Source: Betaproteobacteria bacterium (GTDB taxonomy: Bacteria; Pseudomonadota; Gammaproteobacteria; Burkholderiales; SG8-39). Taken from it: 64,000 bases of DNA. A model generated the notes under the pieces. The model did not search any database, had not been told where the DNA came from, and saw only the letters and a program-made list of their open reading frames with translations. The stretch is taken from positions 8,561 through 72,560 of the forward strand of contig JBBINV010000009.1 in assembly GCA_037443705.1 (NCBI GenBank), in the 5' to 3' direction. A program made the position numbers and the translations under genes. Shown here piece after piece: positions 20,930 through 25,556 of the stretch (position 1 is the stretch's first letter; every line of letters begins with the position of its first letter).

Positions 20930-21274
20930 ATGGACCTCGACGACACCCTGCTCGCGCTCGCGGACGAAACGCGCCGCAGCATCCTGCAGCGGCTCGCGGG
21001 GGGCGAGGCGCGCGTCACTGAAGTCGCCGCGCCGTTCGACATCTCGCTCAACTCGGTGTCCAAGCACGTCCGGATCCTTGAGCGCGCGGGGCTTGTTCGC
21101 CGGCGCATCGCGGGGCGCGACCACTTCCTCGCGCTCGAGCCCGGGCCGTTCGACGAGCTCGCGCGCTGGATGCAGCAGACCCGCCACTTCTGGACCCGGC
21201 GCCTCGACCGGCTCGAAGCCGCGCTGCGCGCCGAGGACGCGATCGCCAAAGCCAAACAAAGGAGCAAAAAATGA
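20930..21274 (+). CDS. ArsR/SmtB family regulator
   Basis: ALADETRRSILQRL..SKHVRILERAGLV. Confidence 0.92.
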   Translation: MDLDDTLLALADETRRSILQRLAGGEARVTEVAAPFDISLNSVSKHVRILERAGLVRRRIAGRDHFLALEPGPFDELARWMQQTRHFWTRRLDRLEAALRAEDAIAKAKQRSKK

Positions 21275-21805
21275 AACAGGCTCACGCCACCCTGATCAAG
21301 CCCTCCACCATCCGCTTTCGAGCGCCTGCTGCCCGGGCCGATCGAGCGCGTGTGGGCCTACCTCGTCGAGTCCGACAAGCGCGCCACCTGGCTCGCCGCG
21401 GGCGAGTTCGAATTGCGCGTGGGGGGCCGGATCGAGCTGATCTTCGACAACGACAAGCTCTCCGACGAGTGCGCGCCCGCCGGCGCGCGCGGCTCGGGCC
21501 GGCACAGCTTCGAGGGCCGCATCACGCGCCTCGAGCCCCTGCGCGCGCTCGCCCACACCTGGAGCTGGGACGGCAAGGAGTCGGAAGTGCTCTACGAGCC
21601 GGAAAAGCGCGGCAAGGACGTGCTCCTCACCATCCACCACCGCCTGCCCGACGACGCCGAGCTCAAGACCGCGGTCGGCGGCGGGTGGGAAGCGCACACC
21701 GGCATCCTCGCCGACCAGCTCAACGGCGTGAAGCCGCGCGGCTTCTGGAGCACGCACGCGCGCGCGATGAAGGCGTTCGCCGAGTCGCTCAAACAGATCG
21801 CCTGA
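21271..21805 (+). pseudogene. SRPBCC/AHSA1 family protein with a frameshift near 21317
   Basis: TIRF then ERLLPGPIERVWAYL in another frame (CGCTTTCGAG has one extra T); could be a sequencing error. Confidence 0.75.
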
Positions 21806-21816
21806 GGCGCGCGGCC

Positions 21817-22571
21817 ATGACCACCCACACCACCGGAACGCGCGAACAGTGGCTCGCCGCCCGCCTCGACCTGCTCGCGGCGGAAAAGGACCTGACGCGC
21901 AAGAGCGACGAGCTGGCGCGGCGGCGCCAGGCGCTGCCGTGGGTCCGCATCGAGAAGGACTACCGCTTCGAGACCGACGCGGGAAGCGCCTCGCTCGCCG
22001 AGCTCTTGCTCGGGCGCTCGCAGCTCCTCGTCTACCACTTCATGTTCGGGCCCGACTACACGCGGGCTGCCCGCCGTGCTCCGCGATCGCGGACGGCTTC
22101 AACGGAGTCGCGGTGCACCTCGCCAACCACGACGTGATGCTCTGGGCGGTTTCGCGCGCGCCGCTCGCGAAGCTGCAGGCGTACCGCAAGCGCATGGGCT
22201 GGACCTTCCCCTGGGCGTCCTCGCACGGCGGCGACTTCAACTTCGACTTCAACGTCCAGCTCACCGAGGAGCAGCAGCGCAAGGGCGGCGCCGAATACAA
22301 CTACCGGCGCGAGTCGGCGTGGTTCCCGCAGGGCAACGAAGGGCCCGTAGGCGAAATGGCAGCCATGACCGGGACCGACTCGGCCACCTACACGCGCGAG
22401 CGGCCGGGCATGAGCGCCTTCGCGCTCGAGGGCGGCGCCGTCTACCACACCTACTCCGCCTACGCGCGCGGGCTGGACGGCCTCTGGGGCATGTACCAGT
22501 GGCTCGACCGCGCGCCCCGCGGGCGCAACGAGACCGGCGTCTGGTGGCGCCGGCACGACGAGTACGCGTAA
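21817..22571 (+). pseudogene. DUF899 thioredoxin-like protein with a frameshift near 22060
   Basis: WLAARLDLLAAEK..YHFMFGPDYT then AGCPPCS..LDRAPRGRNE in another frame (one base missing). Confidence 0.75.
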
Positions 22572-22595
22572 CGTTCGAAGGCTGGCGGGCGCCGC

Positions 22596-22624
22596 TTGTC
22601 AAAAGACGTCTGGACGTCTAATAT
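22596..22624 (+). promoter_or_regulatory. sigma70 promoter of the DNA methyltransferase gene
   Basis: TTGTCA-17bp-TAATAT; spacer contains GACGTC twice. Confidence 0.7.
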
Positions 22625-22654
22625 GGTCATGTACTGGATATCCGTCCATATCAC

Positions 22655-23863
22655 GTGGCCAAGAGAACCAAGAAGCGCCCCGGCGAAGTTCGCGATGCCA
22701 TCGTTGAATTCCTCCGCGTCCGGGGCGCAGGCGCGAGCGTCCAGGAAATCGAGTCCGGCGTGCACGACCGGCTCGGCCCGGTACCCTCCTCGTCGATTCG
22801 ATCGTATCTGCGGCTCAATACCCCGGTGCTTTTCGCGCGGATGGACCGCGCCCAATACACGCTCACCGACTCGCTCAAAGGAATCGAGGAGGCGAAGCAG
22901 CGATTGTCTCCGCCCGCGAAGCGGCTGGCTCCATTCGAATTCGGCAATACACACCTGATTCATGACGACTGCCTAATTTGGCTTCGCGAGCGCGACCCGC
23001 AGACCGTTCACGCGGTGGTCACCGACCCTCCGTATGGGCTTTTCGAGTACTCGGACGAGCAGCAGGAAAAACTCCGCAACGGCAAGGGTGGCGTCTGGCG
23101 CATTCCGCCGTCCTTCGACGGCGTCAAACGCTCGCCTCTCCCGCGTTTTACTGTCCTGAAGCCGACCGATCTGCGGTACCTGGAGGAGTTCTTCCTCGAT
23201 TGGGCGCGCCTCCTCGTTCCCGTCCTGGTGCCCGGCGCCAACGTGGTGGTTGCGAGCAATCCCCTGCTGTCCCACGTAGTTTCCGGATCGCTTGCTCGCG
23301 CCGGACTCGAGCGGCGCGGCGAGATCGTGCGCCTCGTCATGACCATGCGCGGTGGCGACCGACCGAAGCACGCGCACGACGAGTTCAACATGGTGAGCGT
23401 CATGCCGCGCTCAATGTGGGAGCCGTGGCTCGTGTTCCGAAAGCCGATCGAAGGCCGCGTACAGGACAATCTTCGCAAGTGGAAGACCGGCGGTTTCCGC
23501 CGCCCCTCGGCGGACAAACCGTTCGGCGACGTGATCGCGTCTGCGCCGACACGAAAGCAGGAACGGGCGCTTGCCCCTCACCCGAGCCTGAAGCCGCAGG
23601 CGTTCTTGCGCCAGCTCGTGCGGGGCGTGCTGCCGCTCGGTGAAGGTGTCGTGCTCGATCCGTTCGCGGGCTCGGGTTCGACGCTGGCGGCGGCGAACGC
23701 GGTCGGCTACAAGAGCATCGGAATCGAGAAGGACGCGCGCTATTTCCAGATCGCGAAAACCGCGATCCCGCGACTGTCCAACCTCAAGCTCGGCGCGATT
23801 TCGTCTAAAGACGATAAATCCAGTTCTGCCGAAGCTTCGCTATTCCCTCTTTATGAAGCGTAG
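22655..23863 (+). CDS. beta-class N6A/N4C DNA methyltransferase with N-terminal winged-helix-like domain
   Basis: VVTDPPY precedes HPSLKP and VLDPFAGSGST; extra ~70-aa N-terminal domain. Confidence 0.92.
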   Translation: MAKRTKKRPGEVRDAIVEFLRVRGAGASVQEIESGVHDRLGPVPSSSIRSYLRLNTPVLFARMDRAQYTLTDSLKGIEEAKQRLSPPAKRLAPFEFGNTHLIHDDCLIWLRERDPQTVHAVVTDPPYGLFEYSDEQQEKLRNGKGGVWRIPPSFDGVKRSPLPRFTVLKPTDLRYLEEFFLDWARLLVPVLVPGANVVVASNPLLSHVVSGSLARAGLERRGEIVRLVMTMRGGDRPKHAHDEFNMVSVMPRSMWEPWLVFRKPIEGRVQDNLRKWKTGGFRRPSADKPFGDVIASAPTRKQERALAPHPSLKPQAFLRQLVRGVLPLGEGVVLDPFAGSGSTLAAANAVGYKSIGIEKDARYFQIAKTAIPRLSNLKLGAISSKDDKSSSAEASLFPLYEA

Positions 23864-24407
23864 CGGTGCGGGTGCCCAGCTCGCCGCGCGGATTCTTCCG
23901 GAAGTCTGCCACCGTTACCTGCCCAAGATAGACCTCCGTGAACGTCAGCGGCCTGCGCTCAACGGCGGGCTCTGATTCGTTGTCGACCTCGTACACGAAT
24001 ACGCACATCCACTGATTCCGCGCGCCGTGCGTATCCACCGCGCCACCTGCCTTGCGCGTCGTCTTCACCTCTACACCCTTGTCGCCGGCTCTTGCCGCGT
24101 TGTCAGGGTAGACGCCTTTGACGATCAGATCCGGATGCCCGTTGTGATAGCCGTTCTCGACGAGGGACCGCGAATGCTTGGCGAGGCTCGCGGTGAGCAT
24201 GTCGGAAAGAATTCCCGACGTAATCGCGGGTCGGAGCATGTCGTCCAGGCGGCTCAGACTCTTGTTGACGAGCCACTGGTTCACGTCGAAGAAGAAATCG
24301 TAGACATCCTGCATTGCGATTTCGAAATCTTTCAGGCGCAGCTCGAACGGCAGCGCGGCCTTCGGGTTGAACTTCGACGTGTCGACGGAGTTTCGCTGCA
24401 GCGCCAT
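23805..24407 (-). CDS. putative type II restriction endonuclease (PD-(D/E)xK)
   Basis: HPDL...GVEVK motif; 200 aa; convergent with and overlapping the MTase; lower GC than flanks. Confidence 0.7.
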   Translation of the reverse strand: MALQRNSVDTSKFNPKAALPFELRLKDFEIAMQDVYDFFFDVNQWLVNKSLSRLDDMLRPAITSGILSDMLTASLAKHSRSLVENGYHNGHPDLIVKGVYPDNAARAGDKGVEVKTTRKAGGAVDTHGARNQWMCVFVYEVDNESEPAVERRPLTFTEVYLGQVTVADFRKNPRGELGTRTATLHKEGIAKLRQNWIYRL

Positions 24408-24457
24408 CCCTGATCCAGCCGGCGGCAAGGGCCGGTCACTTGTTGTGTCTGGCGACA

Positions 24458-24486
24458 AAGATACCGGGACTCGCCGCGGTCCGCAA
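24458..24486 (-). promoter_or_regulatory. putative sigma70 promoter of the nuclease gene
   Basis: minus strand TTGCGG-17bp-TATCTT. Confidence 0.4.
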
Positions 24487-24500
24487 AACCGCGCCAAGAA

Positions 24501-25556
24501 CTACCGCAGTGCTGCGTTAATCCTTTCCAGCATCCCCGCCCCCGGGCAAAGATCCTTCTCGCCGAGGGTGTTGAACGGCGCGTCGAAGGTGTTGAGGTGC
24601 GCGTGGAGGTCCTGGGCGTCGGGCGAGAGGTAGAGAAGGCCGGTGAGGACTTCACCCTTGGCGGCGGCGGTGGCGATGCGGGTCTGGGCGTTGATGCGGT
24701 CGCTCGGATCGTAGCCGGCGTCGAGCTTGCGGAGCTTGAGGATGGAGCCGTCGTGCTGCGCGACTTCGATGACGCCGCCTTCGGAGTAATCCACGGTGAT
24801 CGCTTCGCGGCTCGGCCAGAAATCGAGCCGGTTGACGGCTTCGTTGTGCTCGCGGATGTAGTCGTAGCTCTTGGTGCTGCCGGCGTGGTTGTTGAACGCC
24901 ACGCACGGGCTGATGACGTCGAGGAAAGCCGCGCCGGGGTGGGCGATCGCCGCCTTGATGAGGGGCACGAGCTGCTTTTTGTCGCCGCTGAAGCTGCGCG
25001 CGACGAAGGTGGCGCCCATGAGGAGCGCGAGGCTCACGGTGTCCACGGCGGCGTCGGCGTTGACCGCGCCGCGCTTGGATTTCGAGCCTGCGTCGGCGGT
25101 GGCGGAGAACTGGCCTTTGGTGAGGCCGTAGACGCCGTTGTTCTCCAGTATGTAGGTCATGTTGACGCCGCGGCGCATGACGTGCGCAAACTGGCCGATG
25201 CCGATGGAGGCCGAGTCGCCGTCGCCCGAGACGCCGATGTAGATGAGGTCGCGGTTGGCGAGGTTGGCGCCGGTGAGCACGGAGGGCATGCGCCCGTGCA
25301 CGGTGTTGAAGCCGTGCGACTGCCCCAGGAAATAGTCCGGGGTCTTGGACGAGCAGCCGATCCCCGAGAGCTTCGCCACCCGGTGCGGCTCGATCGCGAG
25401 GTCGTAGAAGGCCTGGATGAGCGCGGCGCTGATGGAATCGTGCCCGCAGCCGGCGCAGAGCGTGCTGACCTTGCCCTCGTAGTCGCGGCGCGTGAAGCCG
25501 AGCTTGTTCCTGGGAAGCGTCGGGTGGTGGAGACGGGGCTTGGCGAGGTAGGTCAT
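24501..25556 (-). CDS. korB: 2-oxoacid:ferredoxin oxidoreductase beta subunit
   Basis: CAGCG, SGIGCSS, HGR, SGDGD..NN TPP motif. Confidence 0.92.
   Translation of the reverse strand: MTYLAKPRLHHPTLPRNKLGFTRRDYEGKVSTLCAGCGHDSISAALIQAFYDLAIEPHRVAKLSGIGCSSKTPDYFLGQSHGFNTVHGRMPSVLTGANLANRDLIYIGVSGDGDSASIGIGQFAHVMRRGVNMTYILENNGVYGLTKGQFSATADAGSKSKRGAVNADAAVDTVSLALLMGATFVARSFSGDKKQLVPLIKAAIAHPGAAFLDVISPCVAFNNHAGSTKSYDYIREHNEAVNRLDFWPSREAITVDYSEGGVIEVAQHDGSILKLRKLDAGYDPSDRINAQTRIATAAAKGEVLTGLLYLSPDAQDLHAHLNTFDAPFNTLGEKDLCPGAGMLERINAALR

Follow-up and report, generated by a model that had tools for sequence, protein, structure and literature searches.

Within a window of 64,000 nucleotides (nt), the whole stretch of DNA analysed here (contig JBBINV010000009.1 of assembly GCA_037443705.1, Betaproteobacteria bacterium), we followed up a compact cassette of two convergent genes that encode a DNA methyltransferase (M) and a predicted restriction endonuclease (R), together with the promoter of the M gene, which carries two GACGTC hexamers in tandem. 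The window contains an intact convergent predicted Type II restriction-modification (R-M) pair, a mobile cassette of Type IIP. Its parts, with positions counted in the window, are as follows.

22596-22601, + strand: −35 box of the M promoter, TTGTCA, by direct reading; relatives mostly have TTGACA at the same distance
22602-22618, + strand: 17-nt spacer, in which two copies of GACGTC make up 12 of the 17 bases
22604-22619, + strand: tandem putative operator of two 8-bp units, AGACGTCT and GGACGTCT, with GACGTC at 22605-22610 and 22613-22618
22619-22624, + strand: −10 box of the M promoter, TAATAT, immediately next to the second hexamer
22655-23863, + strand: M gene, methyltransferase of 402 amino acids (aa), GTG start, beta-class N6A/N4C type
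24407-23805, − strand: R gene, predicted restriction endonuclease of 200 aa, PD-ExK type with D93, E113 and K115
23805-23863, no strand assigned: tail-to-tail overlap of the M and R genes, 59 bp, with no room for a terminator

The coordinates that the sequence-only reading had given for this promoter, TTGTCA and TAATAT 17 nt apart with both hexamers in between, proved exact. Its description of the genes held up as well. The M protein matches PF01555 (6.4e-18) and, over aa 99-378, the PADLOC model MTase_II PDLC03215 (4.3e-112), and motif IV (DPPY, aa 124-127) stands ahead of motif I (FAGSGST, aa 337-343), the order of the beta class of amino-methyltransferases. The 200-aa partner with its HPDL and EVK motifs and the 59-bp overlap of the 3' ends are likewise present, and no separate open reading frame (ORF) for a controller (C) protein, that is, a small helix-turn-helix (HTH) gene upstream of R or M, was found in 22400-24700. 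Within the same interval the M promoter, which is close to the sigma-70 consensus, is the sole sigma-70-like match, compared with a mean of 0.3 in the shuffled region.

The pattern RACGTY-N2-RACGTY occurs once in the 3.6-Mb genome of the organism, at the M promoter. Simple arithmetic from the 1381 GACGTC sites of this genome predicts approximately 0.5 tandem pairs genome-wide, and uniqueness is therefore not significant alone; it is the exact position of the pair, together with its conservation in relatives, that makes it more than chance. GACGTC as such is found at 0.87 of its expected frequency in the genome, which is mid-range among the 64 hexamer palindromes.

For the R protein, an AlphaFold 2 (AF2) model was obtained with a mean predicted local distance difference test (pLDDT) score of 93.6. 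The best match in a structure search was NaeI (Z 9.4, root-mean-square deviation 3.6 over 147 residues), followed by SwaI (7.1), 3ndh (7.1), SfiI (6.7), BglI (6.5) and EcoRV (6.2). All ten best structural matches, which include NhoI, DpnI, NlaIV and MspI, are restriction endonucleases, and in a Foldseek search the same enzymes rank first, weakly. Because restriction endonucleases fill the top structural ranks, R appears to belong to the EcoRV-like branch of Type II endonucleases, a branch that mostly makes blunt ends or 3' overhangs. The model thus predicts a PD-ExK endonuclease of EcoRV/NaeI-type fold, and the nuclease fold that the sequence-only reading had supposed for the partner protein was indeed found. 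HPDL starts at aa 91 and EVK covers aa 113-115, and in an alignment of 32 R sequences P92, G111 and K115 are invariant and E113 nearly so. Neither the single protein nor a profile of the 32 sequences gave a match in Pfam, NCBIfam or PDB sequence searches, and the sole match in the four libraries scanned was a weak one to PADLOC REase_II (E 0.002). An assignment to RE_ScaI, suggested by an ESM Atlas cluster with a weak score of 0.90 and 21% of its members so named, could not be confirmed.

Conservation of the tandem element in related promoters

The R protein belongs to a large family. Its relatives form at least 8000 clusters at 90% identity, and at the 50% level there are 719 (E <= 0.001); the best 120 of the 90% clusters are 75-92% identical to R, and every name given among them is 'hypothetical protein'. 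A collection scan confirmed an R relative in 228 of 286 matched stretches, and the best 80 of these 228 were used for the comparison of loci. They come from Chloroflexota, Nitrospirota, Binatia, Acidobacteriota, Verrucomicrobiota, Planctomycetota, Gemmatimonadota and several proteobacterial classes. M is encoded at all 80 of these loci fetched via the R protein. The 3' ends of M and R overlap in 61 of 69 loci, with a median of 13 bp, and gaps of more than 50 bp were seen in 2. Plasmids carry the family too: 21 plasmid records contain an R relative, including Klebsiella plasmids of 4.9 kb, and relatives are found on small plasmids of Klebsiella, Citrobacter and Raoultella.

From the 80 loci we assembled a set of 72 M promoters, the one in the window and those of 71 loci. 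Nine loci were left out, seven in which the M alignment starts at residue 89-102 and two that were cut by a contig end. In 71 of the 72 promoters the pattern NACGTN-N2-NACGTN lies over the core promoter, and the ACGT cores and their 8-bp spacing are kept in all 71; the exception, L056, has a single hexamer at the core promoter. Both hexamers are perfect (GACGTC-N2-GACGTC) in 62 of the 72. Of the 71 promoters, 65 have an exact GACGTC as their first hexamer and 64 as their second, and the nine imperfect promoters differ by changes to AACGTC, GACGTT or AACGTT only. Four of the 72 (L006, L041, L049 and L061) have no exact GACGTC, yet retain the ACGT cores and the spacing.

Conservation extends beyond the hexamers. 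In 59 of 71 promoters they are linked by TA, CA or TG, a pyrimidine-purine step; A or T precedes the first hexamer in 65, and the two positions following the second hexamer are T in 60 and A in 51, respectively. The consensus of the element is accordingly AGACGTCT AGACGTCT, two 8-bp palindromic units. In most promoters the element fills the 17-nt spacer and abuts the −10 box; in some, the first unit reaches into the −35 box. Sequences flanking the element are unrelated between loci. Upstream of R, GACGTC was present in 1 of 81 sequences and the tandem in none. The tandem site noticed in the window is thus a conserved feature of the promoters of homologous methyltransferases.

Several further features were observed around these promoters. 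In 38 of 69 related loci the M start codon follows the operator by 11-14 nt and the −10 box by 6-9 nt, and many of the M mRNAs at these 38 loci are probably leaderless. In the window, the M mRNA has a leader of approximately 25 nt ahead of the GTG start. A betaproteobacterial subgroup carries a LexA-box-like CTGT-N8-ACAG just downstream of the −10 box and ahead of the M start codon. It is perfect in L068, and L055 and L065 have CTGT-N8-CCAG; the motif is not present in the window. At the level of sequence, these boxes hint at SOS control in this subgroup. Lastly, additional copies of the hexamer occur farther upstream. The 4.9-kb Klebsiella plasmid L081 (4367-4402), the Ralstonia plasmid L082 (1806-1873), L051 and L056 have a third GACGTC, located 22-54 nt upstream of the pair; the window has AACGTT at 22570-22575, 35 nt upstream of its tandem pair. 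The spacing among relatives is not constant. These upstream copies may be auxiliary sites.

Co-occurrence of the element with a DNA-binding module

The M protein has an extra domain ahead of its catalytic part, comprising approximately the first 95 residues, and this is the best-conserved part of the protein. Two features of it could be placed on the window.

22679-22864, + strand: N-terminal winged-helix (HARE-HTH-like) domain of M, aa 9-70, from the AF2 model
22790-22819, + strand: presumed recognition helix SSIRSYLRLN within this domain, in which S46, S47, R49, S50, Y51, L52 and L54 are invariant

Thirteen residues of the domain (P9, G10, R13, D14, S46, S47, R49, S50, Y51, L52, L54, F60 and Y68) are invariant in 62 M sequences. 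The AF2 model has helices at 9-23, 29-40 and 45-55 and a hairpin at 60-70; the fold order is helix-strand-helix-helix-hairpin, and pLDDT is approximately 90 over aa 11-70. In Foldseek, the top rows for the domain were a model of RpoE, the delta subunit of RNA polymerase, and DNA-binding winged helices (E 0.02-0.1). Pfam HARE-HTH (PF05066) was matched by 4 of the 62 M homologues at E <= 0.01, the best at 4.3e-7, and L033 was the sole homologue above the curated cut-off (30.8 bits versus 25.9). As modelled, the N-terminal domain has a winged-helix fold and may be called HARE-HTH-like. HARE-HTH domains are proposed to be readers of modified DNA, and the parts of that paper available to us present their bacterial role as so far a prediction (PMC11037411). 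No HARE-HTH domain was described as a regulator of an R-M system in the titles and abstract openings covered or in the available parts of PMC11037411.

The seven loci in which M lacks the winged helix, those left out of the promoter set, provided a natural comparison. At none of the seven was a tandem site found within 400 nt upstream of M. Four are from Dehalococcoidia, where the start codon of M overlaps the stop codon of a preceding acetyltransferase gene, and in the other three M lies upstream of R on the same strand.

For plasmids, 6 of the 21 matching records were examined for the domain and the sites. The two occur together in five of them, from Klebsiella, Ralstonia, Rhizobium, Gordonia and Iamia. 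In the Iamia (L084) and Gordonia (L085) plasmids the deposited M start, at an internal GTG, cuts off the winged helix, which is clearly encoded upstream of the annotated start, directly behind the tandem sites. The sixth record, pACMV5 of Acidiphilium multivorum (L083, 742-2612), has an R that is 35% identical, an M without the winged helix, and no sites. There, a gene for a 73-aa Xre-type HTH protein resembling C proteins precedes R, a C-box-like repeat lies upstream, and M faces R. In P0206, a distant relative of R, an HTH_3 domain is fused to the endonuclease. The Acidiphilium Xre-type gene and the P0206 fusion argue that the R family has tried several regulators.

We also ran the search in reverse and scanned metagenomes for the 16-mer AGACGTCYRGACGTCT. 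At least 120 stretches matched, of which 80 were fetched, and in 34 of the 80 the start of a winged-helix M lies within 150 nt of the 16-mer. Two more, L128 and L136, apparently show the same M promoter cut by a contig end. Approximately 18 of the 80 appear to be tandem arrays of the 8-bp unit itself, and the remaining loci are isolated copies, several of them inside ORFs; some chance matches are expected. The arrays (L097, L120, L126, L129, L132, L155, L159 and about 11 more loci) contain at least three copies of TAGACGTC, the unit shared by the operator and the met-box of the repressor MetJ. Seven of them adjoin tRNA genes or are situated between such genes, and one is found inside a cluster of seven tRNA genes. 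The right end of L150 carries the Illumina-adapter-like sequence AGATCGGAAGAGCGTC directly after the operator match, and this end is probably an assembly artefact.

One variant in the reverse scan has the operator in a different setting. In L092 (1391-1616) and the near-identical L127, the tandem operator lies 15 nt before a 64-aa ORF that had no Pfam match, and the nearest named ESM Atlas clusters of this ORF are ParG and ribbon-helix-helix (RHH) families (scores 0.94-0.95). As a lead only, its sequence would fit an RHH-like gene. It is followed by a 328-aa M that is 50% identical to the catalytic part of the M in the window and has no winged helix, and there is no endonuclease in the readable part of the contig. 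These two loci possibly represent an orphan, separately regulated form. Among the M loci examined, then, the sites were always accompanied by a winged helix or an RHH-like gene. That the operator goes with two unrelated kinds of DNA-binding module argues that its sequence is not set by the preference of one regulator, and the obvious candidate for what sets it would be the target site of the enzyme itself.

Self-repression, the candidate target site and alternative explanations

The explanation that we favour, and hold to be rather likely, is that M represses its own promoter by binding the tandem units through its winged helix. In this scheme accumulated M would act as its own repressor and keep RNA polymerase out. 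In a new host, methyltransferase would thus be made in a burst at first and later be held at a low maintenance level. Because the genes converge with no room for a terminator, early transcription of M should run antisense through R; it would thereby delay the endonuclease, and the later repression of M would lift the block.

A number of observations weigh against this scheme. Among the metagenome loci with the 16-mer, 46 of 80 are not beside a winged-helix M, and part of these are unrelated 8-bp arrays. L092 and L127 keep the operator without the winged helix and with the RHH-like gene instead. The domain in the window has no HARE-HTH match of its own in Pfam, and the Foldseek matches of the model are weak. 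Domain and promoter could simply be co-inherited as one 5' module. A single winged helix, moreover, gives no reason for palindromic units, which are easier to reconcile with a dimeric reader or with the target of the methyltransferase itself. The antisense delay is predicted from gene geometry.

The symmetry of the units leads to the question of what the system recognises. We think it reasonably probable, to the same degree as the self-repression scheme, that GACGTC is also the sequence methylated and cut by the system. Four lines of reasoning point in this direction: the units are palindromic, a symmetry that a lone winged helix would not need; the operator persists when the type of regulator is swapped; M has a DPPY motif, and M.AatII, in the available text of PMC3287169, methylates the A of GACGTC to N6-methyladenine; and the R fold is shared by blunt and 3'-overhang cutters. 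Against recognition of GACGTC stand the four promoters without an exact site and the conservation of bases flanking the hexamers. The lack of any special depletion of GACGTC in the host genome (0.87) also counts on the negative side, although this measure is uninformative. The main text of a Klebsiella methylome paper, as far as available, contains no GACGTC (PMC9684165), and two other reports of a GACGTC methylation motif could not be linked to this R-M family. Among the matches listed, the ZraI literature, seen in part, concerns its use as a cloning enzyme only. If GACGTC is the target, the operator would consist of two substrate sites whose state of methylation could tune the binding of the repressor. 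A bolder version, which we offer as a tentative possibility, would be a fused reader-writer circuit in which the HARE-HTH head reads the methylation of its own GACGTC sites, self-shutdown of M times the release of the endonuclease, and the operator, like the met-box, is a DNA shape on which several folds have converged.

An alternative to repression by M is the one proposed in the sequence-only reading, namely that methylation of cognate GACGTC sites lowers the use of the M promoter by RNA polymerase with no repressor involved. Promoter-methylation control of this type is a known mechanism, and a review, as far as its text was available, gives CfrBI, AhdI and LlaDII as examples (PMC12707154). 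Several of our data agree with it, since each unit contains a 6-bp palindrome such as Type IIP systems read, both palindromes are conserved, the same operator stands beside the 50%-identical M homologue without a winged helix, and the DPPY motif and the activity of M.AatII would fit here equally. The two parts of that reading that concern the conserved promoter sites and the nuclease fold of the partner have stood. Pure feedback in the manner of CfrBI is disfavoured, because the sites vanish wherever the DNA-binding module is absent, as at all seven loci where M lacks its domain. Furthermore, 4 of the 72 promoters keep the element without an exact GACGTC, bases beside the hexamers are conserved too (A or T before the first in 65 of 71), and the sites are mostly in the spacer, a part of the promoter that sigma-70 polymerase reads little. 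We therefore consider methylation alone an unlikely explanation.

It is slightly less likely still that the winged helix is an accessory module for target recognition or for reading methylation, with the promoter sites serving as high-affinity substrate sites and no repressor at work. The proposal that HARE-HTH domains read modified DNA (PMC11037411, seen in part) speaks in its favour, as does the finding that the winged helix is more conserved than the linker after it. However, M proteins without the winged helix exist in otherwise intact pairs, so that methylation does not need the domain, and the tandem element is fixed in position on the core promoter and occurs once only in the host genome.

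The similarity of the element to met-boxes suggested another candidate, in which MetJ or an analogous host factor would bind the element as an operator and tie expression of M to the S-adenosylmethionine (SAM) pool. MetJ is a SAM-responsive RHH repressor that binds tandem met-boxes, and the consensus AGACGTCT taken twice equals the published optimal met-box in tandem; both operators consist of tandem 8-bp palindromes with a T-A step at the junction (PMC4239095, PMC3413123, both seen in part). Relatives of the cassette are found on enterobacterial plasmids, and enterobacteria are among the taxa for which MetJ regulons are described in the available part of PMC4239095. Nevertheless, the carriers span many phyla, whereas the MetJ regulons described in the accessible text are from gamma-proteobacteria only, and PF01340 was found in none of six host genomes searched (the organism's own, 95% complete, and five from other phyla), with E. 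coli positive as a control. As a general reader of the sites, host MetJ was consequently rejected. In contrast to MetJ operators, moreover, the gene regulated here is that of a DNA methyltransferase and not a methionine gene, and the sites are probably read by a winged helix, with a small RHH-like protein in its place in one variant. We regard a host factor of this kind as very improbable for the family as a whole; in enterobacterial hosts of plasmid-borne relatives MetJ could bind the operator. The identity with the met-box may reflect convergence on a DNA shape, or chance.

That the tandem sites are functionless chance, for which the expectation of approximately 0.5 such pairs per genome might be cited, is refuted by the locus comparison, with the element kept at a fixed position in 71 of 72 promoters from many phyla, amid unrelated sequence, and we give it practically no weight.

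Relation to known systems and genomic surroundings

The known dual-function repressors of the SsoII type are C5-cytosine enzymes with an N-terminal HTH. Self-repression as proposed for M has its closest parallels in this type of control. According to the parts of two reviews that were available, the methyltransferases EcoRII, SsoII, Ecl18kI, ScrFI and MspI repress their own promoters via an N-terminal HTH (PMC3874152, PMC12707154). The cassette resembles these systems, as far as they are described there, in having an N-terminal DNA-binding domain on M, an operator over the M promoter and no C protein. It differs in that M is an amino-methyltransferase of the beta class, not a C5 enzyme, and carries a HARE-HTH-like winged helix, in its convergent genes with overlapping ends, as opposed to the divergent, competing promoters that the same reviews give for Ecl18kI (PMC3874152, PMC12707154), and in its operator of two tandem palindromes that are possibly substrate sites. 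By analogy, the cassette would work like the SsoII class without being a member of that protein family, the repression being predicted here. What is new is an amino-methyltransferase with a winged-helix head and convergent genes, within a known type of self-repressive control. For the antisense step, the available part of one review lists precedents in EcoRI (PMC3874152).

The cassette shares with CfrBI, AhdI and LlaDII the presence of palindromic, recognition-site-like sequences inside the M core promoter. Unlike in those systems, the sites here are tied to a DNA-binding module and vanish without it, their cognate status is putative, and there are no divergent overlapping promoters. If the operator is made of cognate sites, the cassette may add the principle of these systems to that of self-repression. 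With the C-protein systems PvuII and Esp1396I it has in common the problem to be solved, methyltransferase before endonuclease, but the window has no C gene; the distant relative on Acidiphilium pACMV5 uses one. ZraI cuts blunt and AatII leaves 3' overhangs. The cassette has the same candidate recognition sequence, GACGTC, as these two enzymes, its R fold is common to blunt and 3'-overhang cutters, and M.AatII is an adenine methylase while M has DPPY. In the literature searched, we found no publication that connects AGACGTCT to restriction systems in the way described here.

If the self-repression scheme is correct, two genes and a 16-bp operator would constitute a fourth mode of timing for R-M systems, and a further one in which methyltransferase comes first with no C protein involved. 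The endonuclease family concerned is large, unnamed and widespread, including on small plasmids of Klebsiella and other bacteria, and the cassette offers a direct test bed for the role of HARE-HTH in bacteria. Should the specificity be GACGTC, AatII and ZraI would have a natural and widespread family of isoschizomers here.

Lastly, we considered the genomic surroundings of the cassette. The lower G+C content that had been noted was confirmed with a script (0.62 for the cassette, 0.70 for the left flank, 0.654 for the right flank and 0.687 for the whole window). On the left, the neighbour is a DUF899 protein (PF05988, 2e-54). Next to the cassette, in 20930-22571, genes for an ArsR-type HTH protein, an AHSA1/SRPBCC-domain protein and the DUF899 protein follow each other consecutively; this stretch was found adjoining korB in none of 11 same-genus genomes searched, and DUF899 was beside korB in none of the same-genus genomes compared. 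No direct repeats flanking the cassette edges were found when looked for. The right neighbour has a TPP_enzyme_C domain, consistent with korB. Of the proposed insert between DUF899 and korB, the two neighbours were confirmed, while its left edge could not be located. Homology of the same-genus genomes to the window stops exactly at the korB stop, 24501, which places the cassette in a variable region.

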